Part shown: one piece after another, positions 26,760-52,409 of the stretch
Layout: the number at the start of each line of letters is the position of its first letter
Position numbering within the stretch: position 1 is the stretch's first letter
Source of the DNA: Candidatus Sysuimicrobium tengchongense
GTDB taxonomy: Bacteria > Sysuimicrobiota > Sysuimicrobiia > Sysuimicrobiales > Sysuimicrobiaceae
DNA: 64,000 nucleotides
NCBI GenBank assembly: GCA_031460175.1
Contig: JAVKGW010000001.1
Location: 83,021 to 147,020 of the forward strand
Direction: 5' to 3'
Program-made: the position numbers and the translations under genes
Notes under the pieces: generated by a model
The model's database searches: none
The model's input: only the letters and a program-made list of their open reading frames with translations
What the model was told of the DNA's origin: nothing

Positions 26760-27065
26760 CTATATCTCCACACCGCGGCTGCGAAAGTCTACGATGATGG
26801 AGTCCAAGACCCCGCGGGCCTCAAGAACGGCACGATTCGCGTCCTCGCGGGTTGCTTCTGGCCAGTCCCCAGGGTAGCGGGCTTCAATAGCCCAGACCGT
26901 CAGTTCGGAAAGATCCGGGTACTGGTCCTTCACCCGCCAGCCGGCAGGCAGCAAGTCGCGCAACGCGTTCAGGTTATGCCGAAAAAGGGTCTCTGCCTGC
27001 CTCAAGTCCTCCATCGCAAACTTGAGCCAACGCAACGCCTCCTCCGTCCACTTAGCCGCGTTCAT
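26760..27065 (-). CDS. HEPN-domain protein (toxin of a HEPN/MNT pair)
   Basis: About 100-aa all-helical protein overlapping the upstream MNT gene by 14 nt. Start at internal ATG 27065. Confidence 0.65.
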   Translation of the reverse strand: MNAAKWTEEALRWLKFAMEDLRQAETLFRHNLNALRDLLPAGWRVKDQYPDLSELTVWAIEARYPGDWPEATREDANRAVLEARGVLDSIIVDFRSRGVEI

Positions 27066-27411
27066 ACACCACCCTGCCCTCACGCAACGCTGATCTGAGG
27101 ACGCTTCCCGGCACGTCCCCGCGACGGTCAATTTCGGCCGGGCTCGTGACGATCACATCTACGGCGACAGGCATCCCCTGGGGATCACGCAGACCGTTCA
27201 GGGCACGAAGCGCCTCCACCATAGCAGTGCGTTTGTCTCGAACTTCCGGCAAAACGACGAGGAAATCAAAGTCACTCCATCTTCCCGCCTCTCCCCTCGC
27301 CCGCGAGCCAAAGAGAATGATGCGCAGAGGCTGGAGCCGCTCGACGATCCGCCGCACCGCAGAGTCCAGGACCGGGTCGCGGAGACCCGCTGTACTCTCG
27401 TCCCTATTCAC
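27052..27411 (-). CDS. Minimal nucleotidyltransferase (MNT antitoxin partner)
   Basis: LRIILFGSRARGEAGRWSDFDFLVVL is the GS-x9-13-DxD NTase motif. GTG 27411 with GGAGG upstream. Confidence 0.78.
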   Translation of the reverse strand: MNRDESTAGLRDPVLDSAVRRIVERLQPLRIILFGSRARGEAGRWSDFDFLVVLPEVRDKRTAMVEALRALNGLRDPQGMPVAVDVIVTSPAEIDRRGDVPGSVLRSALREGRVVYERG

Positions 27412-27822
27412 GTTCTCCTCCCTCCCCCGTATCCGCAAACAGCCGGACGCCGACGGGCAGCTCCTTGCGGGCGAGGCGAGCGACCTCCGGCCACCCCAGC
27501 ACCAAGGCGTTGTAGGCCTGCGCGTCCTGGGACCTGCCCTTCTTCTCCGCGATTGCGAACAGGCGGGAGGCGAGATCGCGGGCCAGCTCCCCCCGGGAAC
27601 TTGGCCTAACGAAATCACCCCACCACCTCATTCCCTCGAAAGTCAATCGACTTCACGGCAATCCGCCCGTGCTCTCCGGGCTGGAAGGGGAAGGAGCGGG
27701 TGTCCCGAAGCTTCTCAAACGCCTCCGGCTCGATCCAGGCCTTAAGCGCCCGCCGGAGCCCCTCCAGCTGTTGCGTGATTTGTAGGCAAGAAAACAGATA
27801 CGCTTGCCGAAAGCAAACATCC

Positions 27823-29028
27823 TCAAGTGTCCTCCTTCGTTTGCATCGCGCCGGGGTCCAGGCCGAGCTCCCGCAGAGCGGCCTGGATCTCCTCCAGCCG
27901 ATTGGGCGGGATGCCCCCTTCCGGGGCCACTTCAACGCGCACACGCAGGCGCAGGCTGGGGTCGGTGGCGAAGTGGGTGAGCACCTTCATGTAGAACTGC
28001 GACCACTTGTGCGGCGGAAGTTCGCCTTCCCAGAAGAGGCGGCGCGGCGGGGGTGGCGGTGGCGGCGGGGGTGGGGGCGGAACTGCGTCTTTCCGAACAC
28101 GGACTACAGCCCTTGCCGTTAAGGCCCCGCCTCGAGCTTCGACTTCAAACTCTCCCTCTTCAATCCCGGCCACAAAGTTCCCGTTGCTGTCAATTTCGCC
28201 CCCTCGGGCTGACCAGACCACGCTTTCGATGCGCCGGCCATCCTGGTCAAGTGCCTGAAATTGAACGCTCCCGCCCGGACGAAGTATCACCTCCCCAGGC
28301 TCGATTCTGAGCTGAGCAGGAGGGGGAGCCTTCTTTGTTGTAATAAAGACATCTTCTGCAAACTCCACACTTTCCGGGGTGAAGGTGGGGTCGTTCCAGA
28401 TGATGGGGCCGCCCATCGAGAAATACCCGAACTTGCCTTCCCGCACGCCCCGGGCGATGGTGTTTTTGAGGACATCAGGATGGAGAAGCCGCGGGAGCCG
28501 CGGCGAGGCGAAGAAGGCGTCCCGCACCGCCCTGGTGCTCCACTCCTCCAAAGCGGGCGGCCAGTGGCGGACCAGGAAGTCCGGGCTGATGGCCTCTTCC
28601 AGCAGGCCCTCCTGCTTGAGGCGGGAGAGGATGAGGCTCGTCAGGGACTCCGAGGCGCTCGGGTGCAAAAGCCCCAGGTCCACCTCCCGCATGTCGTTGT
28701 CCTCCCCTAGAAGGAGCACGCGCCGGTAGGCCCGCCACACGCCCTCCTTCAGGTTCCGCCCTGTTCGTTGCTTTTTCTCCCTGAGCTCCTGCAACTGGGA
28801 ATCGTCCAGCCTGAGCCGCTCCCGCTCGGCGGGGTCCTCCAGGCTTTCCAGGGCAAGCAGGGTCCTGGCCTCATCCAGAAGCTGGGCGTCGCCTTCGGCC
28901 ACGGCGAAGATAAGCCCGCTTTTGTAGGTCCGCCCCCGCCCGCCGCAGTTCTGGATCATGTCCATCACCAGCCGGCGGGTCTTCTCCCGCAGGGCGTTCT
29001 CATAGCTGTGCTCCGGCGCCAGCACCAC
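27823..29028 (-). CDS. Hypothetical protein with central Big_2-like Ig domain and poly-Pro linker
   Basis: 401 aa. ...IEPGEVILRPGGSVQFQALDQDGRRIESVVWSARGGEIDSNGNFVAGIEEGEFEVEARGGALTARAVV is Big_2-like, followed by PPPPPPPPPPPP. Downstream, two short overlapping ORFs in other frames (27615-27944 and 27404-27646) may be frameshifted continuations. Confidence 0.45.
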   Translation of the reverse strand: MVLAPEHSYENALREKTRRLVMDMIQNCGGRGRTYKSGLIFAVAEGDAQLLDEARTLLALESLEDPAERERLRLDDSQLQELREKKQRTGRNLKEGVWRAYRRVLLLGEDNDMREVDLGLLHPSASESLTSLILSRLKQEGLLEEAISPDFLVRHWPPALEEWSTRAVRDAFFASPRLPRLLHPDVLKNTIARGVREGKFGYFSMGGPIIWNDPTFTPESVEFAEDVFITTKKAPPPAQLRIEPGEVILRPGGSVQFQALDQDGRRIESVVWSARGGEIDSNGNFVAGIEEGEFEVEARGGALTARAVVRVRKDAVPPPPPPPPPPPPRRLFWEGELPPHKWSQFYMKVLTHFATDPSLRLRVRVEVAPEGGIPPNRLEEIQAALRELGLDPGAMQTKEDT

Positions 29029-36160: not shown

Positions 36161-36240
36161 TTGGATGGGTGCGCCGAGATCTGCCCGATGGGGGGGCTCG
36201 TCGGCCTCAATCAGGCGGTGCACGCCATCAGACATCCCTG
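36161..36240 (-). repeat. Roughly 75-nt diverged repeat encoding a DUF1156-like N-terminal peptide remnant, copy 1 (upstream of the hsdR start)
   Basis: Contains TGCGCCGAGATCTGCCCGATGGG...CTCGTCGG...TCAAT.AGGCGG. On the coding strand it translates as MSDGVHRLIEADEPPHRADLGAP. The second copy is at 38055-38130. Confidence 0.55.
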
Positions 36241-36280: not shown

Positions 36281-37961
36281 TCAAGAAGAGATGATTGCAT
36301 TTCCCCGTGAGATTGATGTATTTTGAATCGCTACATAGCAAGCACCTCGGCCTTTCCCCTGCTTCCTCAAAAAACCCATCTCCACAAGGTGCTGAAGAAG
36401 CCGAAAGGCCTGAATCCGTGAAACGCCGAAAACGCGCCGGACATCCTCATTTTTGACATAGCCTTTCTCATGTAGGATCGGCTCCAGGGCAAGGAGTTCC
36501 GGCGGCTTTTCCTGGGGCGCTTTCTCAGGTTCCGGGATGATCTCATACACTCGCCCTCGAGGCTGGTTGAGCCGCACGATTCTCCGGCGGAGGAGGTCCT
36601 TGATGTCACGACTGGCCGTGTAGGGGTCCACACCGACCAGTTTCTGATAAGCCCGGCTGGTGAACCGGCCTCCGTGCTCGTAGGCGTAAGCCAGAAGCCG
36701 CAGTTGATTGCGGGTGAGCCCCTGCCCTTCGTATCGCCGGAGCCAGTACATCGTCTCCGGTCGGTAGATCGGCGTGCTGTGGAGGGTGACGACAAAGCAG
36801 CCACCTTCCATGGCAAGCTCGGGTGGGCGTAGCCCCTCACGCTCCATCACCTCGAACATGCGTGGGATGCCCTCGCCACGCTCCCGCATGTAGCCCAGGT
36901 CCGTCAGCACCCGCACGATCCGCGGGTTCCGCGAGGCATGGACTTTTTCGCGACGGCGCAACCGTTCCAGGGTCACCGGCGGCACCGGCTCGCCAGGGCT
37001 ACGCACTTCCAGGCGGTCATCGAACAGATCCACTTCGATACCGATCCCTTCCAGAGCGTAATCCCGGTGCGCGATGGCGTTGACAATGGCTTCCTGCCAG
37101 GCGAAGGTGGGATAGACCAGGCGCTCTTCAAAGAAGAGGTCCACCAGGGTCTGCCGCTCAGGCAGATACGGCTGGATGGTCCTGTAGGCTTCCTCCACCA
37201 GCCGCACCAGCGGGATGCCTTCGATCCGAAGCCGCTTGCGGATGTTGAATTCCGGGCCGGTGCGTCGCTCGGTTCCCTGCCAGACGGCGAAATCAATCCC
37301 ACAGCGGGGATGCCAGCGAGAAGGATCTCGGCCGAAGAGCAACAGGGCAGCCCGGCGCAGGAAGAGACGCCCATTTCGCTTCTCGGCCAGATGGTAATGC
37401 AGGAGCGCTTCCTCGACCGACAGGTCCAGTCCTACGCGCTCGACGACTTCTTTCACCAGATCGGTGTTTATATCCGCCAGGGTGGCTTCGGGGACGATCT
37501 GATCTTCCCAGATCAGTTTACGACGTGCGTTCTTGATGGCTTCAATGTCCGTGGCGGGGAAGGGCAGGTTCTGGTCATTGTGACGGTAAAGGTAGCGTCC
37601 ATCGCTGAGCTGATGCACCTGCGGGCTCCAGTCGGTCTCGAAGACCCACACGCGCTTCCCTTCCAGGGTGATTTCATGAACACGAAAGCTCAGAGGGGGG
37701 GCGGATGAGGCTCCTGATCTGCGTCCTGACTTGCGCAAGGTTATAGCGCTCCGGAACGCCCGAAACAGTGCCGTCATCCTCAATACCGAGCACGACCGTG
37801 CCACCGTCGGCATTGGCCATAGCCGCCAGCGTTTCCGCCACATCCCGGATCACGTCTTTGACCGGTCGGGGACGGGGCACGTCGTCCCTCCGGTCATAGC
37901 AACTTTTGCGCTCCAAGAATTGCCCCTCGGATTGCTCTTTCACCCATGTCCAATCGGTCAT
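36281..37961 (-). pseudogene. AlbA_2 (Schlafen-like AAA_4) / HATPase_c_4 putative regulator, frameshifted at a C7 homopolymer
   Basis: N-terminal AlbA_2 domain is encoded in the frame of ORF 37674..37961 (...VVLGIEDDGTVSGV...). The rest is in the frame of ORF 36281..37843. Removing one C from the C7 run at 37695-37701 (coding strand) fuses them into ...IRSLIRPPLSFRVHEITLEG... Confidence 0.7.
37695..37701 (-). other. Homopolymeric C7 (G7 on plus strand) tract at the frameshift site
   Basis: Sequence ...cagagggggggcgg... read directly. Located exactly where the two reading frames of the AlbA_2/HATPase_c_4 gene switch. Confidence 0.8.
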
Positions 37962-38054
37962 GGTGCTTCCCCGAAAGTTGCCGCCGCGTGGGACGGGTCG
38001 ACGCCGGTATCGTTGCCTCGTGCATGACCAGAGGTGGGGGCGCCCTTGCGCACA

Positions 38055-38130
38055 TTCTGGCCCTTCCGGGCATGCGCCGAGATCTGCCCGATGGGCATCT
38101 CGTCGGTTTCAATGAGGCGGCGGATGGGGT
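38055..38130 (-). repeat. Roughly 75-nt diverged repeat encoding a DUF1156-like N-terminal peptide remnant, copy 2 (upstream of the AlbA_2 gene start)
   Basis: 23-nt exact match to copy 1. Translates as MPNPIRRLIETDEMPIGQISAHARKGQ (track ORF 37958..38173). Confidence 0.55.
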
Positions 38131-39335
38131 TAGGCATCCGTTTCTCCCTCCATATATGCAGATGCATTTTCAATGCGCCACAACAGGTAATTTATCACAA
38201 TCAATTGATGAAGAACCTCATACGGGTCCAAACGCACCAGTTCATGGTTCTCCGGCAAATGCCCCTTCGGATTCCTGAAGGCTTTAAAAACCCCTTCACA
38301 AATCAAAGCCAGTCCGGCTTGTTCATTTTTACCTGATTCCTTATCAAGATGAGCGTTAAAGCGAATCCTCAATTTCGCAGGCTCTCCTATTTGTTTCATT
38401 GTTGCCTGAACTAATTCGGCCTCATTTTTGTCCCATATACCGGAACGCTTTTGAATCTCTTCGTTGAGGACCTTGGTTGCCTCAAACACAGCTCCCACGA
38501 ATTTCCCAGCACGGAAGTAGCCTTCTGCCGCTTGCTTGACTCGTCTGTGAAGGGGAAAGTAATCAAAGAGTAGTTGTGGATCCGGATGCTCAGTCTCCCT
38601 TACGATTGCCTCATATAGAAGAGCTTTTTCAGTAGGAGATAACACGCGTTGTGATAGTAGTACTCCTTCATCAAAAACAATCCGTTCTTGAACACTACCA
38701 AAACGTTCCCAATCTTCTCGCTTGTTCCCTCCATAACGCTCGGCCCACCACACTCGCGCAATAATGTCCGCTTCGTCCTGCGGCTCGCCTTGTGGGCGGG
38801 AAACATCATCCCCCAGCTCTCTCAGAGCCGCAGCATAGAGAATCCGCCTATACAAAGGGCCACGCCCCATTTCCCTTTTAGAAATCTCCTTAGTTTTCAA
38901 TATCGCCTGGAGACATTCCCCTCCACGGTCGCTGCCCATTGCCTGGAAACCCAACGATAGGAGAAACACCTGCTCCGGATCACGCAGAGGCGACCATCTG
39001 TCGTCCGCGCCGAGTTGCTGCACCTTGTCACTCAACCGTGCGAACCACTCAGGTTCAAGTTCAAGGGAGCGGCCTGCTTTTCGGTTTAACCAGAAAGCCG
39101 CTGCTATTGGTCCTACATTCCGGTGCACATCCCAGACCTGTTCTTCTTCTACCCATTTTCGTATTTTCAAAACAAGCTCCTCAAAAGGTTGGTTATTCTC
39201 GGTCCCCTCAACGCTCAATGCATAGCCCAACCAGGCCGCCGCGAATGGATCCCAGCGGTCTTTCAGAACCTCCAGCTCCCTCAACAGGGCCTGACGCAGC
39301 TCACGTCTGTAGTGGTAAAAATCTACAGGAACCAT
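38130..39335 (-). CDS. Ymh-family (TIGR02391 / Hypoth_Ymh) HEPN-superfamily protein with an about 250-aa N-terminal extension. Candidate effector.
   Basis: C-terminal ...FVGAVFEATKVLNEEIQKRSG...GLALICEGVFKAFRNPKGH... matches the Ymh domain with an intact R-x4-H motif (RNPKGH). AT-rich codon usage. Start overlaps the 3' end of the pAgo gene by 13 nt. Confidence 0.65.
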   Translation of the reverse strand: MVPVDFYHYRRELRQALLRELEVLKDRWDPFAAAWLGYALSVEGTENNQPFEELVLKIRKWVEEEQVWDVHRNVGPIAAAFWLNRKAGRSLELEPEWFARLSDKVQQLGADDRWSPLRDPEQVFLLSLGFQAMGSDRGGECLQAILKTKEISKREMGRGPLYRRILYAAALRELGDDVSRPQGEPQDEADIIARVWWAERYGGNKREDWERFGSVQERIVFDEGVLLSQRVLSPTEKALLYEAIVRETEHPDPQLLFDYFPLHRRVKQAAEGYFRAGKFVGAVFEATKVLNEEIQKRSGIWDKNEAELVQATMKQIGEPAKLRIRFNAHLDKESGKNEQAGLALICEGVFKAFRNPKGHLPENHELVRLDPYEVLHQLIVINYLLWRIENASAYMEGETDA

Positions 39336-40612
39336 GCCTTATCCCTCAATTTGCCCGCACTGGCTATGGGACTCCAATTGTCCGCCCCGATTTCAGACAC
39401 GAGCCGAGCTACCAGATACGAATAGTTCAGTGTAGCTGGCTTGAGTTGGGCGTTGAATCCCCTCCAGTTAACTCGGGCGAAGGCAAAAACTTGCTGAACC
39501 AGGCGGGGGAACTCATTTGACGACATTGTGGATCGTGCGTCCATGTAGATTTCCAATACATTTGGCACACCCCGCTTTCTGCGCAGTTCCTGACCTGTTC
39601 GATCAGGTACGCGGCCGTCCAAGAACAGTAGCGCCGTGTAACGATTGACCTCAACCCTAATGCCGGGCTTAGGAACATAGGTCGGGTGTGCTGTGTCAAA
39701 CAACCGGTAATTAGTATCATCGTTTAAGTGCAGAATGGCATATGGTATATCAGTGCCGATTCTCTGAAGCGCTTGTTCTACAGCCGCGATCTCCCTAAAC
39801 TTACCCGGACGTTTGCAAAGATGAATTATAATTGAAGAAGGTTTCCCTTGTCGCCGCTCGTACTCCTTGTAAGCCTCAACAACTAAATCGGCAAGCGCAT
39901 TCCTATACTCGTCCAGTTTTTCCCATGCCACCGGTTTGGGCGCAAGCGAATACAGAAATTGGTAATCCCCGTCCTGCATGAAAAGCGTTATAAACCCCAC
40001 AACGTAATTCCTTTGTCGATCCATCGCTCGGCTTACCCCGATAACAAGCTCTTTTTGTTGTGAAGGAGACATAACCGTCCACGGTGTGCCGCCAATCTTG
40101 GCATATATCTGCAGGGCTATATTTTCAAGGGTCCACGGAAGCCCTCTCGTATTTCTAAGTACCTCCGCCGTAACAACCTGGCTTGGAATTCCATTGCCTA
40201 AAAGAAGCGATTTGACCTCAGCATATAGGGTCAGATTTTTCGTTGGCATAATGACAAGAACCAAATCAGGATTATCGTTGACCAGAACAGTCGTTATCGT
40301 TTCCCTCGGAGCTTCAATGTCAAGCGGTCTCTCAGCGACGAATTCAAGAGGAATGCGGAATAGACTCTGGAACCCTGCAAACGCCCCATTGCCGTTAGTA
40401 AGACCTGACACCAAGATATTGTGCTCATCCAAGAGTTCCCTGGGGTACACCAAAACGCAACGAACCCTATCCAGGCCAAGATGTTGTGCATCATACGGGC
40501 CATACCGCCTCAGCCCTTGCCTTGCGTCTTCATGTTGCGCCGACCACGATGAAAGACTAAAACGCAAGGGGGGCAATGTAAATTGTTCTCCTGTTAGATA
40601 GAAATCGTTCAT
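39323..40612 (-). CDS. Short prokaryotic Argonaute (MID-PIWI), predicted catalytically inactive
   Basis: MID motif LVIMPTKNLTLYAEVK...GIPSQVV...QIYAKIGGTPW gives the Y/K/Q/K 5'-end-binding residues. PIWI blocks VIGVSRAMD (Ser replaces the first catalytic Asp), SIIIHLCKRPGKF (RDG-like strand) and PYAILHLNDDTNYRLF. 429 aa. ATGA overlap with the upstream partner gene. Confidence 0.68.
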   Translation of the reverse strand: MNDFYLTGEQFTLPPLRFSLSSWSAQHEDARQGLRRYGPYDAQHLGLDRVRCVLVYPRELLDEHNILVSGLTNGNGAFAGFQSLFRIPLEFVAERPLDIEAPRETITTVLVNDNPDLVLVIMPTKNLTLYAEVKSLLLGNGIPSQVVTAEVLRNTRGLPWTLENIALQIYAKIGGTPWTVMSPSQQKELVIGVSRAMDRQRNYVVGFITLFMQDGDYQFLYSLAPKPVAWEKLDEYRNALADLVVEAYKEYERRQGKPSSIIIHLCKRPGKFREIAAVEQALQRIGTDIPYAILHLNDDTNYRLFDTAHPTYVPKPGIRVEVNRYTALLFLDGRVPDRTGQELRRKRGVPNVLEIYMDARSTMSSNEFPRLVQQVFAFARVNWRGFNAQLKPATLNYSYLVARLVSEIGADNWSPIASAGKLRDKAWFL

Positions 40613-41346
40613 GGAACCACCCCCAGGATAACGCGCAACGGTGTTTCCTCCAAACTTGCCTTTATGCTTTCAGCAAGAGGCAATGAGAACTCTTTGTTTG
40701 CCTGCACAAAAGGTAGAATGTGATTGTGCAGTCTAAGCCGAGAGACTTCCGGATTTATCCGATTATCTGGGAGAAATTCGTCTTGAATTTGTGCAATTTC
40801 TGCCATTGCATTATATCGTTGAATTTCACGAGTATCGAGGCATTGTCCGTGTTCGTTTTGTATTTCCCAGCAGATGTCCACAATCAAGCCCAAAATGGGA
40901 AGATTTCCTTGCCATATATAGATAGTTCTCAAATCGTAACCACGGAAGATTTTCAATCGCCCTGCGACAGCAGTGCGGTAAGGCTTCGGCTCATAAAGCG
41001 TGGTGCGACCTTTCCCGCGCCGTTTGCGATACCCTTGAGTTTTCAGATGGTTGCTAATGCCTTCATTGATCAGGCGAACGCACCATTGAGGATGTTCCAG
41101 CAGCCGAACCTGTTGCTGTTGAAAGCCCTTGGAAGCGAGTCGTTTCATATCTCGGCCATATCCGAAAATCTGATCTCGATATCGATAAACATGAATAGTC
41201 CATCCCAACTGCTCAATCTCAGTGCGCAATTCTTGTAATGAGGCGAAGTTTTTTGATGGTGCTAGCATCAAGCTAACGCGCTCATCTGGCAAGTTCACTC
41301 TGAAGACATTTACATAGAGCCCTGGCTCCAGCAAGATCGTGTTCAT
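40609..41346 (-). CDS. Putative pAgo partner protein (APAZ/N-domain-like; no recognisable SIR2/TIR/nuclease effector domain)
   Basis: 245-aa ORF, AT-rich, with an AGGAGG RBS. It sits immediately upstream of, and is translationally coupled to, the short pAgo, which is the position the APAZ-containing partner takes in short-pAgo operons. Fold assignment is inferential. Confidence 0.4.
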   Translation of the reverse strand: MNTILLEPGLYVNVFRVNLPDERVSLMLAPSKNFASLQELRTEIEQLGWTIHVYRYRDQIFGYGRDMKRLASKGFQQQQVRLLEHPQWCVRLINEGISNHLKTQGYRKRRGKGRTTLYEPKPYRTAVAGRLKIFRGYDLRTIYIWQGNLPILGLIVDICWEIQNEHGQCLDTREIQRYNAMAEIAQIQDEFLPDNRINPEVSRLRLHNHILPFVQANKEFSLPLAESIKASLEETPLRVILGVVP

Positions 41347-41405
41347 TTAGTCAGCCTCCTGATAGCCTAATACTCAAGCTGTATTCTCCCTGCTTACTCC
41401 CTCGT

Positions 41406-44400
41406 TCATTCTATTCTTTTCAGCTTCTCTAGATCGATCTGGTAATGCTCAATCCTCACGATGGGCTCCCAATTCAGGCGGACGGGGTCCTGGACGGCGA
41501 TGAGGCGCGGGCGGGTGGCGCAGTCGAAGACCACGTAGAGCCAGTAGTCCGCCCTCAGCCGTTCGGCCGTTTTGTATTCGTTGGGCGTGAGGGCCACCGG
41601 CCCCACGCCGGCCCGGCCCTTGACCTCGATGAAGCGGACGTGGCCGCTTTCCGGGTGCCGGGACAGGATGTCAAAACCGCGATCCTCGGCGGAGACGTCC
41701 TCGGGCTCCCAGCCCCGCTCCCGCTCATAGCGCATGGCTTCCTCCATCGCAATGCGCTCGATTTCCTCGTCCCGCACCATGGGCGCGAACTCTTCGCGCT
41801 CGGGATGGGGCAGGACCAGGGCCGAGCCGATATGGGTGAGGTCGGCGATGGCCAGCTCCCGCTCCCGCCGGAGCTCCTCCCGCCGCCGCTCCAGCCGCGC
41901 GTTCAGCTCCTCCAGCCGCCGCTCCGCCTCGCTCAAGGCCAGCGTCACGTCCTCCCCATGCTGCTGCCGCTCCAGAAGCTCGGCGATCTGCCGCTGCTGC
42001 CGGTCGATGAGGGTGAGCAGGCTCACCTCCACGTGGCGGGCGATGGTCTCCAGCTCCTTCTGTCGCTCCTGCTGGACCTTCCCCAGGAAAGACTGAAGCC
42101 CGCTCTCCAGCAGGAAGCGCTCCACTTCGTTCCGGTCGACCGGGAAGATGGGCGGCGGATCCGCCGTTCCCGGCATTACCGGAATGAGGTCCAGAAAGAG
42201 CGTCGGCTGACGCAGGCGCATCTCCCCCGAAGGCCCCACCTCCACTACGAAGAGCTGGCGGTGCAGGATGTTGCCCCGTCCGTCTGCGACGGAGGCCGCA
42301 TACACCTCCAGCCGGGCCGGCGCCGTCCGATGCAGGTCATAGAACACGGCGCCCCGTCTCAGGTCTGTCTGCGCCTTCTCCCACACCTCCTCCCGAACGG
42401 CCTCGAAGAGCGGATGCCCGGGGGTCACCCACTCCAGCGTGGGGTCCTCGGTCAGGCGCTGTTTGTTGAAGGTGATCCGCCGGTACTCCCGCCCCAGGGG
42501 ACCGAAGCGGGGCTCCAGACGCTCCCCTACGAGCTGCAGGTGGCGGGGGATGCGCCCTACGGTGTAAACGCCGTTGCGGCCCTTCGGCGTGGGAAGGCCG
42601 GCGATGGGAGCCGCCTGCAGGAAGAAGGTCTCCACCACCTCCGGCACCAGCCGCCGCTCCTTGGCCTCGGCCGTCCGTCCCAGGATCGCCGACAGGTTCA
42701 GCTCTCTCTTGGCCAGCCCTTCCAGCGTGGACTGGCAGATGCGAGCGAAGCGTTCCCGGTCCAGGTCCTGGACGAGGCGCTCGAGGGCCGCCTGCGGAGT
42801 GAGGCGCCCGGCGTAGAGGTCCCGGAACAGCCGCTCCAAGTAGTTGGCCGGGATGACCTCGCCGACCACGTCGAAGACCTGGTCGCTGCCCAGCTCCCGA
42901 CGGATCTCCCGAAGCCGCTCCAGGAGGCGCTCCAGGACCTGCCCCTCCCGGGTGTTGGCGGCCACGAAGTTGAAGATCAGGCAGTCCCGCTCCTGGCCGT
43001 AGCGGTGGATGCGCCCCATGCGTTGCTCCAGTCGCATGGGGTTCCAGGGGATGTCGTAGTTGATCATCAGCCAGCAGAACTGGAGGTTGATACCTTCCCC
43101 GGCGGCCTCCGTGGCCACCATGATCTGGGCCTCTTCCCGGAACTCCCGCTCGGCGTAGAGCCGGGTGCCCGGCGTGTCCCGGTCGCCGATCTTCATGCCG
43201 CCGTGGATCTGGGTAACCCGGAAGCCCCACCGGCGGAGGGTGACCACCAGGTAGTCCAGGGTTTCCTTGAACTCCGTGAAGATGAGGAGCTTGGTGCGGG
43301 GGTCCTCAAAGAGCCCCTGTTCGGTGAGCACCTGGCGCAGCTTGGCCAGCTTGGAGGAAACTTCCCGCTCCTCCAGAGCCCGGGCCTGCTGCACCAGCGC
43401 CCGCAGGGCCTGGCTTTCCTGTCGGATCTCCCAGGATTCGGAGGGGAGAGAGGCCTCTTCCACCTCCTCCTCGACCCGGATCGCTTCCTCCTCAGGCAGC
43501 TCATCCAGATCCTCCAGACGGGAGAGGTCCACGGCGACCTCTGGCCGGGGGCGGCGCAGGCGGTCTTCCAGCTTCTCCAGGCGCCGCTCCAGGCTCCGGC
43601 GGACGGCGTGGAGGCTGGAGGCGAAGCGCCGCTGATACATGGCCATGGTGAACCCGAGGGCCCGCCCACGGGCGGAAGGGTCGGCGGCGGCGCGGATGGA
43701 CTGCTCCTGCACATAGCGGGTCAGGGCCTCGTAGAAGGCGAACTCCGGGCCGTCCAGCTCGAAGCGGACGGTGCGTACCTCCCGGTTCGTGAACAGCCGG
43801 CGGACCTTCCCCGTTTCGGGGTCGGGGAAGGTGATGAGCGCCTCTTTGGTCCGGCGGAGATAGAACGGCGCGTGGTTGCGCCGGATGGCCTCCTCCAGGC
43901 TGCGGACGTCTGCGTATACATCCCTATCCAGAAGCTGGAGGAAGAGGCAGAAGTTCACCGGATCGCCCTTATGGGGCGTACCGGTGAGGAGAAGGAAATG
44001 ATGCGTCCGCTGGGAGAGCAGCTCGCCGAGCTTATAGCGCTCCGTCTTATGCTCCGGGTCGCTGGCGCTCATCCGGTGGGCTTCGTCGACGATGACCAGG
44101 TCCCAGGTGGTGCGCTGGAGGCTCCCGAGCACGTCCTCGCGCTTGGCGAAGTCAACGGAGGTGATGACCTGGGGCCTGTCCTGCCAGGGGTTGACCCCGT
44201 AGGCATATTTCAGGTCCACGCCGCGGACGATATCAAACCGCTCCCGGAAGCGGTCGCGCAGCTCCCGCTGCCACTGGAACATCAGGTTGGCAGGCGTGAC
44301 GATCAGGGTGCGGGAGACCAGCCCGCGCAGCTTGAGCTCCTTGAGGAGCAGGCCGGCCATGATGGTCTTTCCGGCGCCGGCATCGTCGGCCAGCAGGAAG

Positions 44401-44759
44401 CGAATGCGGGGCAGCGGCAGGATGTAGTGATAGACCGCCTCCAGCTGATGAGGCAGCGGGTCCACGCGGGCGATGGAGAGGGAAAAATACGGGTCGTAGT
44501 CGTAGGCCAGCCCCAGGCGGGCCGCTTCCACCCCCAGTCGGAAGCGGTGGGCGTCGCCGTCGAACGGCGCTTCGGCAGGGATGATCCGCAGCCGACCGAC
44601 CTGCTCCGGGGTCAGGAGACGCTCGTGGTATTGCCGGGTGCGAAGCCCCTGCCCGCCCACCCGGAGATTCGGGCCGAAGGGCTGCACGAGCAGAATCCGG
44701 ATAGGTTCTGGGAAAACTTCCCCTTCCACGATGGCGCCGGATTGAAGATCGTTTTCCAT
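41406..44759 (-). CDS. SNF2-family helicase with C-terminal DUF3883 (restriction-endonuclease-like) domain
   Basis: SNF2 motifs LADDAGAGKT, DLVIVDEAHR, LLLTGTPHKG and QRMGRIHRYGQ. C-terminal ...RFIEVKGR...YWLYVVFD is DUF3883-like. 1117 aa. 57-nt gap to the partner gene. Confidence 0.85.
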   Translation of the reverse strand: MENDLQSGAIVEGEVFPEPIRILLVQPFGPNLRVGGQGLRTRQYHERLLTPEQVGRLRIIPAEAPFDGDAHRFRLGVEAARLGLAYDYDPYFSLSIARVDPLPHQLEAVYHYILPLPRIRFLLADDAGAGKTIMAGLLLKELKLRGLVSRTLIVTPANLMFQWQRELRDRFRERFDIVRGVDLKYAYGVNPWQDRPQVITSVDFAKREDVLGSLQRTTWDLVIVDEAHRMSASDPEHKTERYKLGELLSQRTHHFLLLTGTPHKGDPVNFCLFLQLLDRDVYADVRSLEEAIRRNHAPFYLRRTKEALITFPDPETGKVRRLFTNREVRTVRFELDGPEFAFYEALTRYVQEQSIRAAADPSARGRALGFTMAMYQRRFASSLHAVRRSLERRLEKLEDRLRRPRPEVAVDLSRLEDLDELPEEEAIRVEEEVEEASLPSESWEIRQESQALRALVQQARALEEREVSSKLAKLRQVLTEQGLFEDPRTKLLIFTEFKETLDYLVVTLRRWGFRVTQIHGGMKIGDRDTPGTRLYAEREFREEAQIMVATEAAGEGINLQFCWLMINYDIPWNPMRLEQRMGRIHRYGQERDCLIFNFVAANTREGQVLERLLERLREIRRELGSDQVFDVVGEVIPANYLERLFRDLYAGRLTPQAALERLVQDLDRERFARICQSTLEGLAKRELNLSAILGRTAEAKERRLVPEVVETFFLQAAPIAGLPTPKGRNGVYTVGRIPRHLQLVGERLEPRFGPLGREYRRITFNKQRLTEDPTLEWVTPGHPLFEAVREEVWEKAQTDLRRGAVFYDLHRTAPARLEVYAASVADGRGNILHRQLFVVEVGPSGEMRLRQPTLFLDLIPVMPGTADPPPIFPVDRNEVERFLLESGLQSFLGKVQQERQKELETIARHVEVSLLTLIDRQQRQIAELLERQQHGEDVTLALSEAERRLEELNARLERRREELRRERELAIADLTHIGSALVLPHPEREEFAPMVRDEEIERIAMEEAMRYERERGWEPEDVSAEDRGFDILSRHPESGHVRFIEVKGRAGVGPVALTPNEYKTAERLRADYWLYVVFDCATRPRLIAVQDPVRLNWEPIVRIEHYQIDLEKLKRIE

Positions 44760-44990: not shown

Positions 44991-45416
44991 TCAGGGTGGT
45001 GATGCTTCCTTCCTCTCGGCATCTGGGCCACCCCTCGAGTCAAGGAACAGCAAGGCCCCGTGGCCGTCGAAGCTCCAGGGGCGGCCGGCTTCGACCACCT
45101 CCAGGCGCGGTTCGTCGTCCCGGTACAGGAGGACGTTGCCCACCCGGCCCGCGGGATCCTTGTAGGTGAGCTCCAGGGCGTCGGTGCCGAACCACTGGAC
45201 GTTCACCACGGTGACCGCGGTGCCCGGGAGGACGCCGCGGACCGTCGCTTGCGGCCTGAGGTCTTCCAGCCTCACACCCACCCCGCTGGAGACGGAGGCA
45301 TGCGGAATGCCCCGTCTCACCGTGCCCCGAGCTCCCCCACGGAGCCCGGGCACTCCCGGACCGGCTTTGGTGCTAAAATAGGCGAACATGTGCACGCGGT
45401 CAAGGCGCGGGCACAT
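44991..45416 (-). CDS. Hypothetical small protein (possible Tudor-like, RapA-N-terminal-like beta domain)
   Basis: ...GTAVTVVNVQWFGTDALELTYKDPAGRVGNVLLYRDDEPRLEVV resembles the N-terminal beta-barrel domains of SNF2/RapA helicases. ATG 45416 with GGAGG upstream. The track ORF's N-terminal extension runs into the att repeat. Confidence 0.3.
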   Translation of the reverse strand: MCPRLDRVHMFAYFSTKAGPGVPGLRGGARGTVRRGIPHASVSSGVGVRLEDLRPQATVRGVLPGTAVTVVNVQWFGTDALELTYKDPAGRVGNVLLYRDDEPRLEVVEAGRPWSFDGHGALLFLDSRGGPDAERKEASPP

Positions 45417-45527
45417 GCCTCGCCTCCTGCTGGCGCCCCAAACCCTCCGCAGGTGCCGCGGACTCACGACCCCGTAGGGGTACTCAGGTGGTGCCGGGAA
45501 GGTATACCCGCTTCCTGCGCGGTTCTC

Positions 45528-45575
45528 CGCTGGTGCCTGGGGAGGGAGTCGAACCCCCGACACGGGGATTTTCAG
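45528..45575. repeat. attL-type direct repeat: 48-nt exact copy of the 3' part of tRNA-Phe
   Basis: CGCTGGTGCCTGGGGAGGGAGTCGAACCCCCGACACGGGGATTTTCAG is identical to 52331-52378 (the tRNA-Phe 3' half, from CCA end to anticodon stem). Confidence 0.85.
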
Positions 45576-45858
45576 CCCTACCAGAGACGTTGCACACCGT
45601 CCCCTTGTATCTCATACGCTACATTAACGCGCACCAAGATGTATACCACATCTCGCGGAGTTGCACGAATGATCATCCAATGGCTGCACGTTTGGCTGCA
45701 CGCCTCCAGGGTGGTCCGCCCCGTGGTCCCGCCTGTGCGCGCAGGTGTAGGTGCGCGTGTGCGGCCCTGCGGCGCGTGAAAAAGACCGCGCCCCGGGGTC
45801 GCGCGCGCACCCTCCTGATTTGCCGAGATAAAAAGAACCGCCGCGGGTTACTCTAAAG

Positions 45859-47208: not shown

Positions 47209-47424
47209 ATGCGAGAGCAGCCCCGGCCGGTGGAGCTGTTGACTGTCGAGCAGCTTGCGTCTGCCCTACGGATCAGCAAGGCGACCGCGTACCGTCTGAT
47301 CGCGCGGGGCTTGGTGCGCGGTGTGCGCCTCAGCCCGCGGTGCCTGCGGATCCCGGCGTCCGAGGTTTTGAGGTTGATCCGGGAGGCCACGGGCGGTCTC
47401 GAGGGGGATGACGGGGATGATTGA
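47209..47424 (+). CDS. Excisionase-family DNA-binding protein (Xis/MerR-like HTH)
   Basis: LLTVEQLASALRISKATAYRLIARGLVRGVRL. Start trimmed to ATG 47209. Its stop overlaps the prim-pol start. Confidence 0.6.
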   Translation: MREQPRPVELLTVEQLASALRISKATAYRLIARGLVRGVRLSPRCLRIPASEVLRLIREATGGLEGDDGDD

Positions 47425-50197
47425 CCGCGATGAGGTCCTCCGTGGCCTGAGCACCCTTCATCCGGACGGAGGTGCGGTTGAGGTTCGGGCGTTGGGACCA
47501 TGGCGCGGGGTTGTTGCGGGCTATTTCAACAACCGCACCGCACTCGTGGCCGCGGTTGAAGAACTTGACCGCCGTGGTGCGCATGGGATCTACATCACGT
47601 TGAACCAGATCAATCCGGCTCTGCTCGCACGTTGCGCGAACCGGCTGAATTGGGGCGGAGGCGAAGTGCCACTCACATCCGATGCCGACGTTCTGCGCCG
47701 TCGGTGGATCCTCTTTGACTTGGACCCTGCGCGACCGGGCGGTGTTGCTGCAACAGGCTTCGAGCACGATGCGGCCCTGCACCGGGCCGAGGAGGTCCGG
47801 GAGTGGCTCCGCGAGCAGGGCTGGCCCGAGCCCGTGGTGGTGGATAGCGGCAATGGCGCCTACCTGCTGTACCGGGTTGACCTCCCGAACGACGCGGCCT
47901 CCACCGAGTTGGTGCGCGCGGTCCTGGCCGCAGTTGACCTCCACTTTACGGACGGGGCGACCCTCGTGGACACGAAGACGTTCAACGCGGGCCGCATCGT
48001 CCGCCTGCCGGGAACCACGAACCGCAAGGGCGATCCTACTCCGGACCGGCCACACCGTATGTGCAGGATCCTGCACGTACCAGAGCCGGTGCAGGTGGTG
48101 CCCGAGGAGGCCCTGCGTGCGGTTGCGGCTCTAGCACCTGCGGAGCCTCGTGTGGAGGACCGCAGGCAGAACCGTGGAGATCCGAAGGAGCGGGTGGAGC
48201 GGGTCATTGCTGCGCTCAACCTGGAGGTGGCTCGCAGCGGGCCGTGGGGTGGCGGTGGTTGGAAATGGGTGTTTCGCAACTGCCCGTGGGAGCCGGAGTT
48301 GCACCGGGATCGGGCCGCCTACATCGTCGTCCTCCCGAGCGGCGCGATCACGGCGGGTTGTCACCACCTCGGGTGTTCGAGCCGAGGGTGGAAGGACCTC
48401 TTGGCGTTGCTGCCCGAGGGGGATCGTCCGCGGGAATCGGTGGAGCCGGAATCCACGGGGCCGGCGAAGGTCAAGCCGGTCTTCCGGCCGGTCACGGAAC
48501 TCGAAGCCCCGCCCGTTCAATGGGTTTGTGAGCCTCTCGTGCCCGCTGGTGCGTTGACACTGCTGGGGGGGAAGGACAAGAGAGGAAAGACACTGTTGGC
48601 CCTTGAACTCGCACGTTCGGTGCTCTCCGGAGAGCCGTTCCTCGGGGTGTTCCCGGTACAGACCGGGGCGGTGGTGGCCGTCCTCCTAGACGACCCGCTC
48701 AATATTACGCTTGACCGCCTCGAGGAGATGGGTATTCGTAGGCACCCCCACCTTTTCCTTCTCGACCTGCGAGACAATCCTGATCCACGCGACGCCCTGG
48801 GCGCGATGGAGGAAGCCGTGCTCTCCATGAAGCCAGCCCTGGCAATCTGGGATGCGTTGTTCCACTTGCTCCCGCCCCGGGAGAACGCGTTGAACGACGC
48901 AGCGTTGATGGGCCCGGTCGCCCTCCGCCTCGACCGGATCGCCCGCTCGGGGGAGTGCGGGCTGATCACGATCCTGCACGACAACAAGGTGGGTAGCGAC
49001 TTGGCCGGGTCATTCGTGCTCCGAGCCGCGGCGAAGTCCATCCTCCGGCTGTGGCTCCCTCGGGGGGCCGAGACGGAGGAGGACGAGCCGGTCGGTCCCC
49101 GCCGCGTCTTGGGCCTGGAGACGAAACTGGCAGCCCCGCAGACCTGGGCACTCGAGCTTTGGGGCCCGGGTAGGTGGAGGTTCCTGGGGACCCTGCGGGA
49201 GGCCCGGGAGGCAGACATCCGGGCCAGGATCCTGGAGTTCGTCCGGGATCACCCCGGGGCGACCACCCGGGAGATCCTGGAGGGGGTCCAGGGCGCCACG
49301 ACCCGGGTGCTCGGGGTCCTCGAGCGACTCTGCGGGGAGGGGGTGGTCCAGCGTGAGGGGTCGGGTAGGAGAGGGGACCCCTTCCGGCACCGGGTTGGAG
49401 GGGCCGGGCAAGATTTCGTTTCTGAATCCCCTTTTAGGGGAACGAAACGAGAAACGAATCGGCCGGAAGCCGCGTCAGATCTGGATTTATTCGTTTCTGC
49501 CGGGTTCCGAAACGAAACTGAGGTCAGAAACGAATTTCTGCCCGACCAAGGGGAGGGAGGGGTGCCACCCCAGGGAAAGGACCCCGGGTCTGGGGAGTCC
49601 AGCCCTGGCGAGGGAGGACCACGGGGTGAGGACCCCCGGACCCCAGGTGGGAAGGAGGGCCTCAAGGAGGTCAAGCAGGAAGGGACCCAGGCTGAGGGGG
49701 ACCCAGCCCCGGGGGGAGACCAGGGTGGTGGGGGGAGCATCCCGGACTGGGCCATGGGCCTGGCGGAAGCCCTCCCCCGGCGGCCCGGGACAGACCCCAA
49801 GCGGGTGGCCGAGGCCATCGCGAACCTGCTCGAGCCCCCGATCCCCCGGGACACCATCCCACAGGAGGCGCAGGCGCCCACCTGCAGGACCTGCGGGGGG
49901 CGGAGGTGGTGGAGGCGACCCGACCACCTGGGCGGGGGTTGGGTCTGCGCCCGCTGCCACCCCCCGGGGCCGGTCCAGCCCGTGGCCTGGCACGGTCCGG
50001 AGGAGCCCGAGACTCCCACAGCGCCCCGGGGGCGAGTCCGCGTTGAGATGTTCAGGGTCGTCTACCTGTGCTCGACGCACGGCGTGCTCCCCCATAATGG
50101 GGTGTTTCGCGGGGACGGTCCGCCACGGTGTGGGGCGTGCCTGCGTGTCGCGGAGGTGCATGAGGAGCCGATCCCGGTGGAGGATGAGGGGAGGTGA
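47408..50197 (+). CDS. Bifunctional primase-polymerase (prim-pol) N-domain fused to an AAA_25/RepA-like helicase-type ATPase
   Basis: Prim-pol: IYITLNQ...ILFDLD...VVDSGNGAYLLYRV...RLPGTTNRKG. Walker A: LLGGKDKRGKTLLALELARS. The single 929-aa ORF includes a low-complexity segment that overlies the iteron cluster. Confidence 0.8.
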   Translation: MTGMIDRDEVLRGLSTLHPDGGAVEVRALGPWRGVVAGYFNNRTALVAAVEELDRRGAHGIYITLNQINPALLARCANRLNWGGGEVPLTSDADVLRRRWILFDLDPARPGGVAATGFEHDAALHRAEEVREWLREQGWPEPVVVDSGNGAYLLYRVDLPNDAASTELVRAVLAAVDLHFTDGATLVDTKTFNAGRIVRLPGTTNRKGDPTPDRPHRMCRILHVPEPVQVVPEEALRAVAALAPAEPRVEDRRQNRGDPKERVERVIAALNLEVARSGPWGGGGWKWVFRNCPWEPELHRDRAAYIVVLPSGAITAGCHHLGCSSRGWKDLLALLPEGDRPRESVEPESTGPAKVKPVFRPVTELEAPPVQWVCEPLVPAGALTLLGGKDKRGKTLLALELARSVLSGEPFLGVFPVQTGAVVAVLLDDPLNITLDRLEEMGIRRHPHLFLLDLRDNPDPRDALGAMEEAVLSMKPALAIWDALFHLLPPRENALNDAALMGPVALRLDRIARSGECGLITILHDNKVGSDLAGSFVLRAAAKSILRLWLPRGAETEEDEPVGPRRVLGLETKLAAPQTWALELWGPGRWRFLGTLREAREADIRARILEFVRDHPGATTREILEGVQGATTRVLGVLERLCGEGVVQREGSGRRGDPFRHRVGGAGQDFVSESPFRGTKRETNRPEAASDLDLFVSAGFRNETEVRNEFLPDQGEGGVPPQGKDPGSGESSPGEGGPRGEDPRTPGGKEGLKEVKQEGTQAEGDPAPGGDQGGGGSIPDWAMGLAEALPRRPGTDPKRVAEAIANLLEPPIPRDTIPQEAQAPTCRTCGGRRWWRRPDHLGGGWVCARCHPPGPVQPVAWHGPEEPETPTAPRGRVRVEMFRVVYLCSTHGVLPHNGVFRGDGPPRCGACLRVAEVHEEPIPVEDEGR
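49412..49540. repeat. Iteron-like cluster: six copies of GAAACGA(A) in both orientations
   Basis: ttcgtttc (49415-49422), cgaaacga/gaaacgaa (49443-49458), ttcgtttc (49490-49497), gaaacgaa (49509-49516), gaaacgaa (49527-49534). AT-richer than the surrounding sequence. Lies inside the prim-pol reading frame. Confidence 0.65.
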
Positions 50198-50737: not shown

Positions 50738-51967
50738 TCATGCCCCGGACTCCCGTACTACGCGGTCCAGCCTTTCCGCCGCCTCCCGCCCCAGGCCCGG
50801 CAGCACGTGGCTGTAGGTCTCCATGGTGGTCGTGACGGTGGAGTGCCCGAGCTGCTGCTGGACCACCCGTGGGTGGACACCGGCCTTCAGGCTGAGGGTC
50901 GCGTAGCTGTGCCGGAGGTCATGCAACCGCATCCGCGGGAGGCCTGCGGCGCGCAGCACGCGGGCGAAGTTGCGCCGTCTCAGGTTCTCGGGCCGCACGG
51001 GGCCTCCGGCCTCATCGGTGAAGACCAGGAGCTGGTCGTTCAGCAACCACCCCTCAGCCCGCTGCCGCTCCTGATGCCCCCGCAGGGCCTCCACCACGAA
51101 CCTGGGCATGTCCACCACCCGCCGCCCGGCGGTGGTCTTCGGCTCCGTCCACACAGGCCTTCCCTTAACCCATGTGACCTGCCGGCGGACCGTGATCTTG
51201 CCTCCCTCGAGGTCCACGTCCGGCCAGGTCAGGGCCAGGGCCTCGCCTAGGCGCAAGCCGCACCCCAGCAGCACGGCGAACAGTGCGTAGTATCGGTCCT
51301 GGCGCGCGGCCTGTAGGAAGCGGGCAGCCTGCTCCGGTGTAAGGGCGCACATCTCCCTCTGGGTTGCCTTGGGTTTAGGCACTAGATCACAGGGATTCCG
51401 TGGCAGGAAGCCCCAAGTCACCGCCTGCTCCAGCATCCGGTGCAGGGTGCGCAGGACACCGCGCTGATGGCTGCGGCTCGCACCGCGCCGCTCCATCTCC
51501 GCCAGCACCGCTTGCACGTGGATCGGGGAGAGTTTTGCGATCTGTACTCCTCCGATGACCGGGACGATGTGGTTGCGGACGCGCGACTCGTAGAACGCCA
51601 AGGTGCTCGGCCTGGTGCTGACCGACACCACGTCGGACAACCACTGCTGTGCGAACTTGGCCACGCTGAGCCTGCCAGGCTCAGGAAGGGGACCGGACGC
51701 CATCTGGAGCCGTACGCGGGCAGCCTTCTCCATCGCCTCCCTAGCGCTGCGGCCGTACAAGTAGACCCGCCTCCGCTTGCCGCTCGGTGTCCACCCGGCG
51801 CTCAGGGCCGCGACCCACACAGTCCGCCCCCCGACGCGCCGCCTGTAGAGAGCGCCCTCTCCCCGCCGCCTGCGCCTCGGACGTCCCGCAGCGGCACCGT
51901 TGGTGCCGGACAGATCAGCAGCGCGCTCCACGTCTCCCACCCCTCGTTCATCTGCTCCATGCCTCAT
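50738..51967 (-). CDS. int: Tyrosine-type site-specific integrase
   Basis: C-terminal catalytic region ...LHDLRHSYATL...LGHSTVTTTMETYSHV carries the R...HxxR...Y signature. Adjacent to the tRNA-Phe attachment site. Confidence 0.9.
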   Translation of the reverse strand: MRHGADERGVGDVERAADLSGTNGAAAGRPRRRRRGEGALYRRRVGGRTVWVAALSAGWTPSGKRRRVYLYGRSAREAMEKAARVRLQMASGPLPEPGRLSVAKFAQQWLSDVVSVSTRPSTLAFYESRVRNHIVPVIGGVQIAKLSPIHVQAVLAEMERRGASRSHQRGVLRTLHRMLEQAVTWGFLPRNPCDLVPKPKATQREMCALTPEQAARFLQAARQDRYYALFAVLLGCGLRLGEALALTWPDVDLEGGKITVRRQVTWVKGRPVWTEPKTTAGRRVVDMPRFVVEALRGHQERQRAEGWLLNDQLLVFTDEAGGPVRPENLRRRNFARVLRAAGLPRMRLHDLRHSYATLSLKAGVHPRVVQQQLGHSTVTTTMETYSHVLPGLGREAAERLDRVVRESGA

Positions 51968-52226: not shown

Positions 52227-52333
52227 GGGTGCCACCCCGCAATTGGCTGCATATTGGCTGCACAGCCCAACCTTGCCCCTTCCTGCATCACCTCCCGCGC
52301 GGGCTGAAACCCCTGTGCTGCCTGGGTTCCCGC

Positions 52334-52409
52334 TGGTGCCTGGGGAGGGAGTCGAACCCCCGACACGGGGATTTTCAGTCCCCTGCTCTACCACCTGAGC
52401 TACCCAGGC
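52334..52409 (-). tRNA. tRNA-Phe (anticodon GAA)
   Basis: Reverse complement GCCTGGGTAGCTCAGGTGGTAGAGCAGGGGACTGAAAATCCCCGTGTCGGGGGTTCGACTCCCTCCCCAGGCACCA. Anticodon loop CUGAAAA, encoded CCA. Its 3' half is the att core. Confidence 0.92.

Follow-up and report, generated by a model that had tools for sequence, protein, structure and literature searches.

Three consecutive minus-strand genes in a 64,000-nt window of DNA from Candidatus Sysuimicrobium tengchongense (GCA_031460175.1, contig JAVKGW010000001.1, positions 83,021-147,020 of the forward strand; all coordinates below are those of the window unless another record is named) probably form a self-contained abortive-infection system built on a split long-B prokaryotic Argonaute (pAgo). 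We put the probability of this reading at roughly 0.6. The genes lie at 40609-41346, 39323-40612 and 38130-39335 and encode, in this order, a 245-aa protein predicted to be the N-L1-L2 half of an Argonaute, a catalytically inactive 429-aa MID-PIWI protein, and a 401-aa protein ending in a Ymh-family HEPN domain. An initial annotation of the window had proposed a pAgo defence module at this locus, and the central protein indeed matches the Pfam Piwi family (1.5e-18) and the PADLOC pAgo model (7e-74). The family is compact, with about 1,075 aa in three genes. The three-gene order recurs in about 80 independent bacterial and archaeal loci, which indicates that the genes are real and did not arise as chance reading frames.

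The initial annotation had grouped the three genes with a fourth, an SNF2-DUF3883 gene directly upstream (41406-44759, minus strand). All four reading frames were recovered at the coordinates that it gave (1117, 245, 429 and 401 aa), and Pfam returned the domains that it had named: SNF2-rel_dom, Helicase_C and NOV_C/DUF3883 in the 1117-aa protein, Piwi in the 429-aa protein and Hypoth_Ymh in the 401-aa protein. The 4-nt overlap between the partner and pAgo genes and the 13-nt overlap that translationally couples the HEPN gene to the pAgo gene are likewise present. The 57-nt overlap reported between the SNF2 and partner genes is not; instead, a 59-nt spacer (41347-41405, minus strand) separates them and carries a ribosome-binding site (AGGAGG) 8 nt upstream of the ATG of the cassette. 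The spacer is also a compositional boundary, at which GC falls from 0.70 to 0.49. Both GC and GC at third codon positions (GC3) are 0.46-0.50 in the three cassette genes, compared with 0.67 and 0.87 in the SNF2 gene; viewed along the sequence, GC is about 0.67-0.70 in the SNF2 gene versus 0.46-0.53 over 38000-41500. The other flanks in the window have a GC of about 0.59-0.60, with a GC3 of 0.63-0.73 in the genes downstream of the cassette. The cassette is thus compositionally foreign, which supports the earlier suggestion that the three AT-rich genes were acquired horizontally.

Judged by its sequence relationships, the MID-PIWI protein (39323-40612, minus strand) belongs with the long-B pAgos rather than the bona fide short ones. 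In a phmmer search of PDB sequences, the best solved relatives were AfAgo (AF1318; 6e-28, aligned end to end), RsAgo (2e-22) and EcAgo (5e-21), all of which are long-B pAgos. The Argonautes of SPARSA and SPARDA gave weak matches (2.6e-3 and 2e-4), and SiAgo was a remoter relative (5.9e-6). The loss of the first catalytic Asp, and with it an inactive PIWI domain, had been noted initially and is confirmed by the alignment: Ser194 occupies this position, Ser is found there in 54 of 56 dereplicated family members, and the position of the second catalytic Asp lands in the segment IIIHLCK. The 5′-phosphate pocket, by comparison with AfAgo, is intact. Residues Y130, K134, Q145 and K172, equivalent to AfAgo Y123, K127, Q137 and K163, are invariant in 56 relatives, as is the C-terminal carboxylate motif KAWFL. 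This YKQK pocket supports the use of 5′-phosphorylated guides. The protein is also unusually conserved, showing 54-75% identity across phyla and domains among the best 120 homologues listed. Because all of these best 120 matches are at least 54% identical, pAgo relatives associated with other effectors lie outside the reach of the search.

The 245-aa partner (40609-41346, minus strand) has no match in Pfam, nor any among PDB sequences in a sequence search, and its assignment came from the predicted structure only. According to the model, it is the N-L1-L2 half (the APAZ equivalent) of a PAZ-less split Argonaute, like AfAgo-N, without an additional domain, and thus has the relationship to Ago N/L1/L2 that the initial annotation had anticipated. 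A separate upstream protein with this predicted fold and no fused effector is characteristic of split long-B pAgo systems. Two labels in the initial annotation do not survive this comparison. The "short pAgo" is nearest to AfAgo, RsAgo and EcAgo and is paired with an AfAgo-N-like protein, and the "effector-less partner" is the rule and no anomaly, because the effector of a split long-B pAgo is normally encoded by a separate downstream gene. In SPARTA, SPARSA and SPARDA, an APAZ protein is fused to TIR, SIR2, DREN, HNH or Mrr; here the partner has 245 aa and consists of N-L1-L2 only. A true short pAgo with a missing effector was considered and ruled out, given the N-L1-L2 partner and the long-B-like pAgo.

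The 401-aa HEPN protein (38130-39335, minus strand) is the sole plausible enzymatic output of the cassette. Hypoth_Ymh (PF09509) matches residues 262-387 (Pfam, 1.2e-18). The PADLOC model Aga_HEPN, which the database calls Argonaute-associated HEPN, "Class II", matches residues 1-393 over model positions 1-381 of 382 (E=1.1e-150), beside the pAgo gene. A sequence search found no match among PDB sequences. The segment FRNPKGH holds the Rx4H catalytic motif, R354-N-P-K-G-H359 (codons at 38259-38276, minus strand), which had been described as intact and proved essentially invariant: across 104 homologues, conservation is complete at H359 and at least 90% at R354, N355, P356 and K357, and the residues preceding the motif include the invariant E338 and G341 as well as Q339 (at least 90%). 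With an Rx4-6H motif in a HEPN bundle, as in Ymh-family HEPN RNases, the protein is a predicted RNase. Its N-domain (about residues 1-255), encoded immediately downstream of the pAgo gene, is predicted to form an all-helical alpha/alpha-toroid. The toroid is rich in invariant or near-invariant aromatic residues (W35, Y38, W61, W68, W196, Y201, W209 and Y241), a pattern that hints at a ligand-binding pocket or docking surface. A phmmer search with the N-domain against 1.84 billion representatives returned 57 clusters, and Ymh HEPN was present in 31 of the 33 scanned. At least 120 full-length homologues of the effector occur in bacteria and archaea, and a protein identical to it has been deposited from an Armatimonadota metagenome-assembled genome.

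Conservation and genomic setting of the cassette

Scans of genome and metagenome collections yielded 86 loci, which were reduced to 64 lineages at 90% identity (designated by L numbers below). Since the genome collection gave 6 loci only, the survey consists mostly of metagenome contigs, many of them short, and the flanks were uninformative in 10 of the 64 lineages. In every surveyed locus with room upstream, in bacteria and archaea, the genes for the N-part, the pAgo and the HEPN protein lie on one strand in a fixed order. The linkage of Ymh to the pAgo, for which the initial annotation had suggested a neighbourhood survey, is therefore conserved, the three genes always occurring together among the 64 dereplicated relatives. 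The sole exception to the synteny is a truncated HEPN remnant in Thermus tenuipuniceus (L004, NZ_PRDA01000003.1, positions 7827-8726 of that record). This gene, flanked by hsdM and hsdS, retains HEPN residues 164-393 only and is accompanied by neither pAgo nor N-part; it resembles the decayed remains of a cassette in the slot that is usual in type I restriction-modification (R-M) operons. The pAgo and HEPN genes overlap by 13 nt in 44 of 53 lineages and by 4 nt in 8 more, and where the N-part and pAgo genes meet, most lineages show either a 4-nt overlap or a gap of 1-3 nt. The family is extremely well conserved over thermophilic bacteria and archaea, with Caldanaerobacter subterraneus as a cultured host.

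The surroundings of the cassette vary. In 35 of the 54 informative lineages a host gene is directly adjacent on the same strand, usually overlapping or nearly touching, and belongs to a type I R-M system (18 lineages), an Hma system (8) or a DrmMI/DruE-like operon (9); the other 19 have no such adjacent host gene. In one of these 19 (L018), the cassette lies in housekeeping surroundings, between ribF and a TsaD-family (PF00814) gene. Type I operons accommodate it as hsdM-cassette-hsdS-hsdR or hsdM-hsdS-cassette-hsdR, and the order in Caldanaerobacter subterraneus is hsdR-hsdM-cassette-hsdS. A further slot is bounded by genes for a DrmMI-like/type IIG methyltransferase and for a DruE-like helicase, in DISARM/Druantia-like operons.

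The window provides an Hma setting. The SNF2 helicase-NOV_C/DUF3883 protein upstream of the cassette is HmaA (PADLOC, 5.3e-190), and the other end of the Hma frame is formed by HmaC (23371-26742, minus strand; HEPN_Swt1 plus DUF499 ATPase by Pfam; PADLOC E=0, 1094 bits). The frame also encloses a Schlafen/GHKL/winged helix-turn-helix (wHTH) gene, a type I R-M system, a DUF3800 gene and a nucleotidyltransferase gene. An HmaB/DUF1156 gene was not found in the 64-kb window, which thus lacks a complete three-gene Hma system. In the closest relatives (L029, L031, L034 and L078) the order is HmaA, cassette, HmaB (DUF1156 methylase, 5e-131), and in L034 and L078, whose contigs reach further, HmaC follows HmaB. 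In these loci, therefore, the cassette lies inside an Hma system.

The composition of the cassette was compared with that of its flanks in GC-rich hosts (flank GC 0.58-0.69; L007, L009, L029, L034, L041, L062-L066, L078 and the window). Cassette GC is 0.47-0.51 in these loci, 10-18 points below the flanks, and the deficit persists even between genes of one operon; in AT-rich hosts, cassette composition matches that of the flanks. The low GC may reflect either recent, repeated transfer or a compositional constraint on the cassette. The Hma, Hsd and Drm genes of the GC-rich hosts are host-like in GC3 (0.7-0.93; HmaA 0.87-0.93), against about 0.5 in the cassette. HmaA is about 40% identical between cassette-bearing loci, whereas the pAgos are 61-71% identical. 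Taken together, the gaps in identity and in GC3 indicate that the cassette entered divergent host systems independently and that HmaA is not one of its components. The survey thus reveals one cassette repeatedly placed at equivalent slots of three kinds of R-M-type operon and compositionally foreign throughout, a pattern that bears on the movement and placement of "embedded" defence modules.

Proposed mechanism and alternative explanations

The fold and family of each protein, the catalytic loss in PIWI, the conserved 5′-phosphate pocket and Rx4H site, and the strict synteny with overlapping genes were computed directly. The mechanism that we consider most likely, at the same rough probability as given at the outset, is as follows. 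The N-L1-L2 and MID-PIWI proteins would form a PAZ-less, nuclease-dead Argonaute heterodimer, which would load small 5′-phosphorylated guides, most likely transcript-derived RNA. Pairing of the guide with complementary invader DNA would change the conformation of the heterodimer, which could then bind the helical N-domain of the effector, bring HEPN domains together and so turn on a metal-independent RNase. The RNase would degrade cellular and invader RNA, such that the infected cell stops growing or dies. We infer heterodimer formation, an RNA guide with a DNA target, effector recruitment and the abortive outcome from AfAgo, SiAgo and BPAN. AfAgo-N and AfAgo form a heterodimer with RNA-guided DNA binding (PMC10954474), SiAgo-Aga1 binds its effector only when guide/target-bound (PMC11788926), and BPAN, BPAS and BPAM act via abortive infection (PMC10620215). 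It is also established that HEPN RNases require dimerization for activity (see also PMC11162769). The autonomy of the cassette is supported by its variable flanks, which range from type I R-M, Hma and DrmMI/DruE-like genes to the housekeeping genes of L018.

Several points weigh against this mechanism. The guide and target chemistry is deduced solely from the conservation of the pocket, and heterodimer formation and effector recruitment are argued by analogy. Homology of the effector N-domain to Af1317 or SiAga2 was not confirmed by sequence, its phmmer relatives being fused only to Ymh HEPN. The frequent nesting in R-M-type operons could mean that the cassette is not fully autonomous. Finally, a literature search that covered few of the subscription journals found no experimental study of a HEPN-type long-B system or of a HEPN effector of an inactive pAgo.

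The HEPN protein might instead serve guide biogenesis, cutting transcripts into small RNAs that are loaded by the pAgo, as Agap-HEPN does for AmAgo, with interference then achieved by binding alone. In a published case, a HEPN RNase encoded alongside a pAgo was shown to generate guide RNAs, and defence required this RNase even with a catalytically dead pAgo (PMC11162769). However, the products of HEPN RNases carry a 5′-OH, which is why AmAgo lacks the YKQK pocket, yet all four pocket residues are invariant here. The Agap gene precedes that of an active long-A pAgo, whereas the present HEPN gene follows an inactive long-B pAgo, in the position of an effector (PMC10954474). The size and conservation of the helical N-domain also suit an adaptor or a regulator. 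Because 5′-OH products are at odds with a canonical 5′-phosphate pocket, and because of the gene order, we regard guide biogenesis as unlikely.

Other alternatives involve the host operons. The initial annotation had left it undecided whether the SNF2-DUF3883 protein was a further component or a separate system. As a fourth component, HmaA would be a partner of the pAgo, either effector or guide generator, in the way that DdmE recruits the helicase-nuclease DdmD (a precedent mentioned in PMC11788926), and it does lie directly upstream on the same strand in the window and in L029, L034, L031, L007 and L078, sometimes 5-8 nt away. Yet HmaA is missing from the vicinity of the cassette in most lineages, being a neighbour in about 8 of the 54 informative ones, and type I R-M or DrmMI-like genes take its place elsewhere. 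In related loci with HmaA, the cassette is followed by HmaB, and by HmaC where the sequence extends so far, and the differences in identity and GC3 point to separate histories. Hma is also known as a host of many unrelated embedded systems (10.1101/2024.01.29.577857). The variable flanks above all make a four-gene module very improbable, and the part of the earlier claim that stands is that HmaA belongs to a separate system. The nesting itself might reflect a different kind of link, in which a host R-M-type complex would silence or trigger the HEPN RNase, as in PrrC/EcoprrI, so that the cassette would step in as a further defence once restriction has been subverted. The 35 lineages with adjacent R-M-type genes fit such coupling, and Ymh HEPN proteins embedded in R-M loci have been proposed as PrrC analogues (PMC3710099). 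A specific protein-protein interface is, however, difficult to reconcile with three unrelated host systems and two slots in type I operons, at least one locus (L018) lies between housekeeping genes, and embedding is a general habit of many autonomous systems (10.1101/2024.01.29.577857). Since the unrelated hosts and the stand-alone instance weaken the case for it, we consider PrrC-like coupling doubtful. We find it equally doubtful that both ideas apply at once, with RNA-guided DNA sensing unleashing a collateral HEPN RNase in the manner of Csm6 or Cas13 and nesting making the cassette a PrrC-like functional back-up when host restriction is bypassed or inhibited. An autonomous three-gene abortive-infection system remains our preferred reading.

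Other features of the defence island

Directly downstream of the HEPN gene lies a gene with Schlafen AlbA_2, GHKL (HATPase_c_4) and double wHTH domains (36281-37961, minus strand). It is split by a frameshift near 37690-37700 into parts of 95 and 456 aa; the same split occurs in three independent read-set assemblies and is therefore not an assembly error. Homologues abut the cassette in three other lineages (L019, L072 and L078), and a 2026 preprint describes a "Schlatpase" module exchanged between long-B pAgos and type I R-M operons. A role for the Schlafen-like gene as an obligatory regulator was ruled out, as it is adjacent to the cassette in 4 lineages only and split in the window. The gene is flanked by a perfect 23-nt direct repeat (36170-36192 and 38073-38095), set within about 70 nt of similar sequence. 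The upstream copy forms the 5′ end of a 59-aa reading frame (MPNPIRRLIETDEMPIGQISAH..., 37958-38137, minus strand) that runs over the stop of the HEPN gene (8 nt shared) and the start of the Schlafen-like gene (4 nt shared). The second copy shortly precedes what is probably the true start of hsdR. The repeat could be a recombination scar or a shared leader.

HmaC, through its N-terminal HEPN_Swt1 domain (1.2e-36), is a second HEPN protein of the island, and a minimal nucleotidyltransferase gene (NTP_transf_2; 27052-27618, minus strand) lies just upstream of hmaC. Fragments of both Hma proteins accompany the intact genes. An HmaA N-terminal fragment (model positions 2-76, 6e-19; about 45051-45275) lies inside a reading frame at 44991-45563 (minus strand) just upstream of hmaA, and an HmaC fragment (positions 565-773, 3.5e-14) is found at 27823-29028 (minus strand) upstream of hmaC. 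They are remnants of a second Hma system and suggest past recombination or replacement in the Hma frame. A 73-nt direct repeat of 86% identity (45506-45578 and 52309-52381), which includes the 3′ half of tRNA-Phe (52334-52409), flanks an integrative element of about 6.8 kb with a tyrosine integrase (50738-51967, minus strand) and a primase-like AAA_25 protein (47408-50197, plus strand). The defence island starts just past the far end of this element.

Comparison with characterized systems

The type of system found here is already catalogued computationally, and the window cassette adds nothing beyond the databases and a 2024 paper. The belief of the initial annotation that a Ymh/HEPN RNase had not been described with a pAgo was thus mistaken: PADLOC-DB 2.0 (2023) contains Aga_HEPN, and HEPN is named among the downstream effectors of long-B pAgos in PMC10954474 (NAR 2024). 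According to that paper, long-B pAgos, split or single-chain, have a conserved downstream gene encoding a helical domain combined with a transmembrane, TIR, HEPN or PD-(D/E)XK domain; it also shows AfAgo to be a split long-B pAgo, with N-L1-L2 encoded by the upstream gene, and finds that splits of this kind arose repeatedly. In 2013, Ymh HEPN proteins had been tied to R-M operons and not to pAgos (PMC3710099). It appears that no pAgo system whose effector is an RNase has been characterized; inactive pAgos are known to act through NADases, DNases or membrane proteins. The present family would reveal whether an Argonaute sensor can drive collateral cleavage of RNA.

With respect to its genomic placement, the cassette resembles the defence systems of 10.1101/2024.01.29.577857, in which the embedding of unrelated systems in Hma, type I R-M, BREX and DISARM operons is presented as a general phenomenon. 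It likewise occupies slots between hmaA and hmaB or among the genes hsdM, hsdS and hsdR; pAgo cassettes are absent from that portion of the paper's text that was searched. PrrC, another HEPN RNase, likewise lies within a type I R-M operon (EcoprrI), but it is physically coupled to its host system, and the cassette shows no sign of such coupling.

Among pAgo systems, AmAgo with Agap-HEPN is the only experimentally studied pAgo-HEPN pair (PMC11162769) and shares with the cassette the translational coupling of a pAgo with an Rx4H-bearing HEPN RNase. AmAgo, however, belongs to the long-A pAgos, is active as a nuclease and accommodates 5′-OH guides in a non-canonical MID pocket, and Agap is encoded upstream, belongs to another HEPN family and makes guides instead of acting as a toxin; the window cassette has an inactive PIWI domain, a canonical YKQK pocket and a downstream HEPN gene. 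BPAN, BPAS and BPAM (PMC10620215) combine an inactive long-B pAgo with a downstream effector, as the cassette does, and EcAgo is a detectable homologue of its MID-PIWI protein (5e-21). They differ in having single-chain pAgos and a PD-(D/E)XK DNase, Sir2 or transmembrane effector, with no RNase effector among the classes studied. SiAgo-Aga1-Aga2 of Sulfolobus islandicus (PMC11788926) has a membrane protein as effector and another gene order. The AfAgo system of Archaeoglobus fulgidus (AfAgo-N, AfAgo and Af1317) shares a MID-PIWI protein that can be aligned end to end (6e-28), an inactive PIWI domain, an intact 5′-phosphate pocket, the lack of PAZ and an effector gene immediately downstream, and differs in that the C-terminal domain of Af1317 is transmembrane, whereas that of the present effector is a predicted Ymh HEPN RNase.

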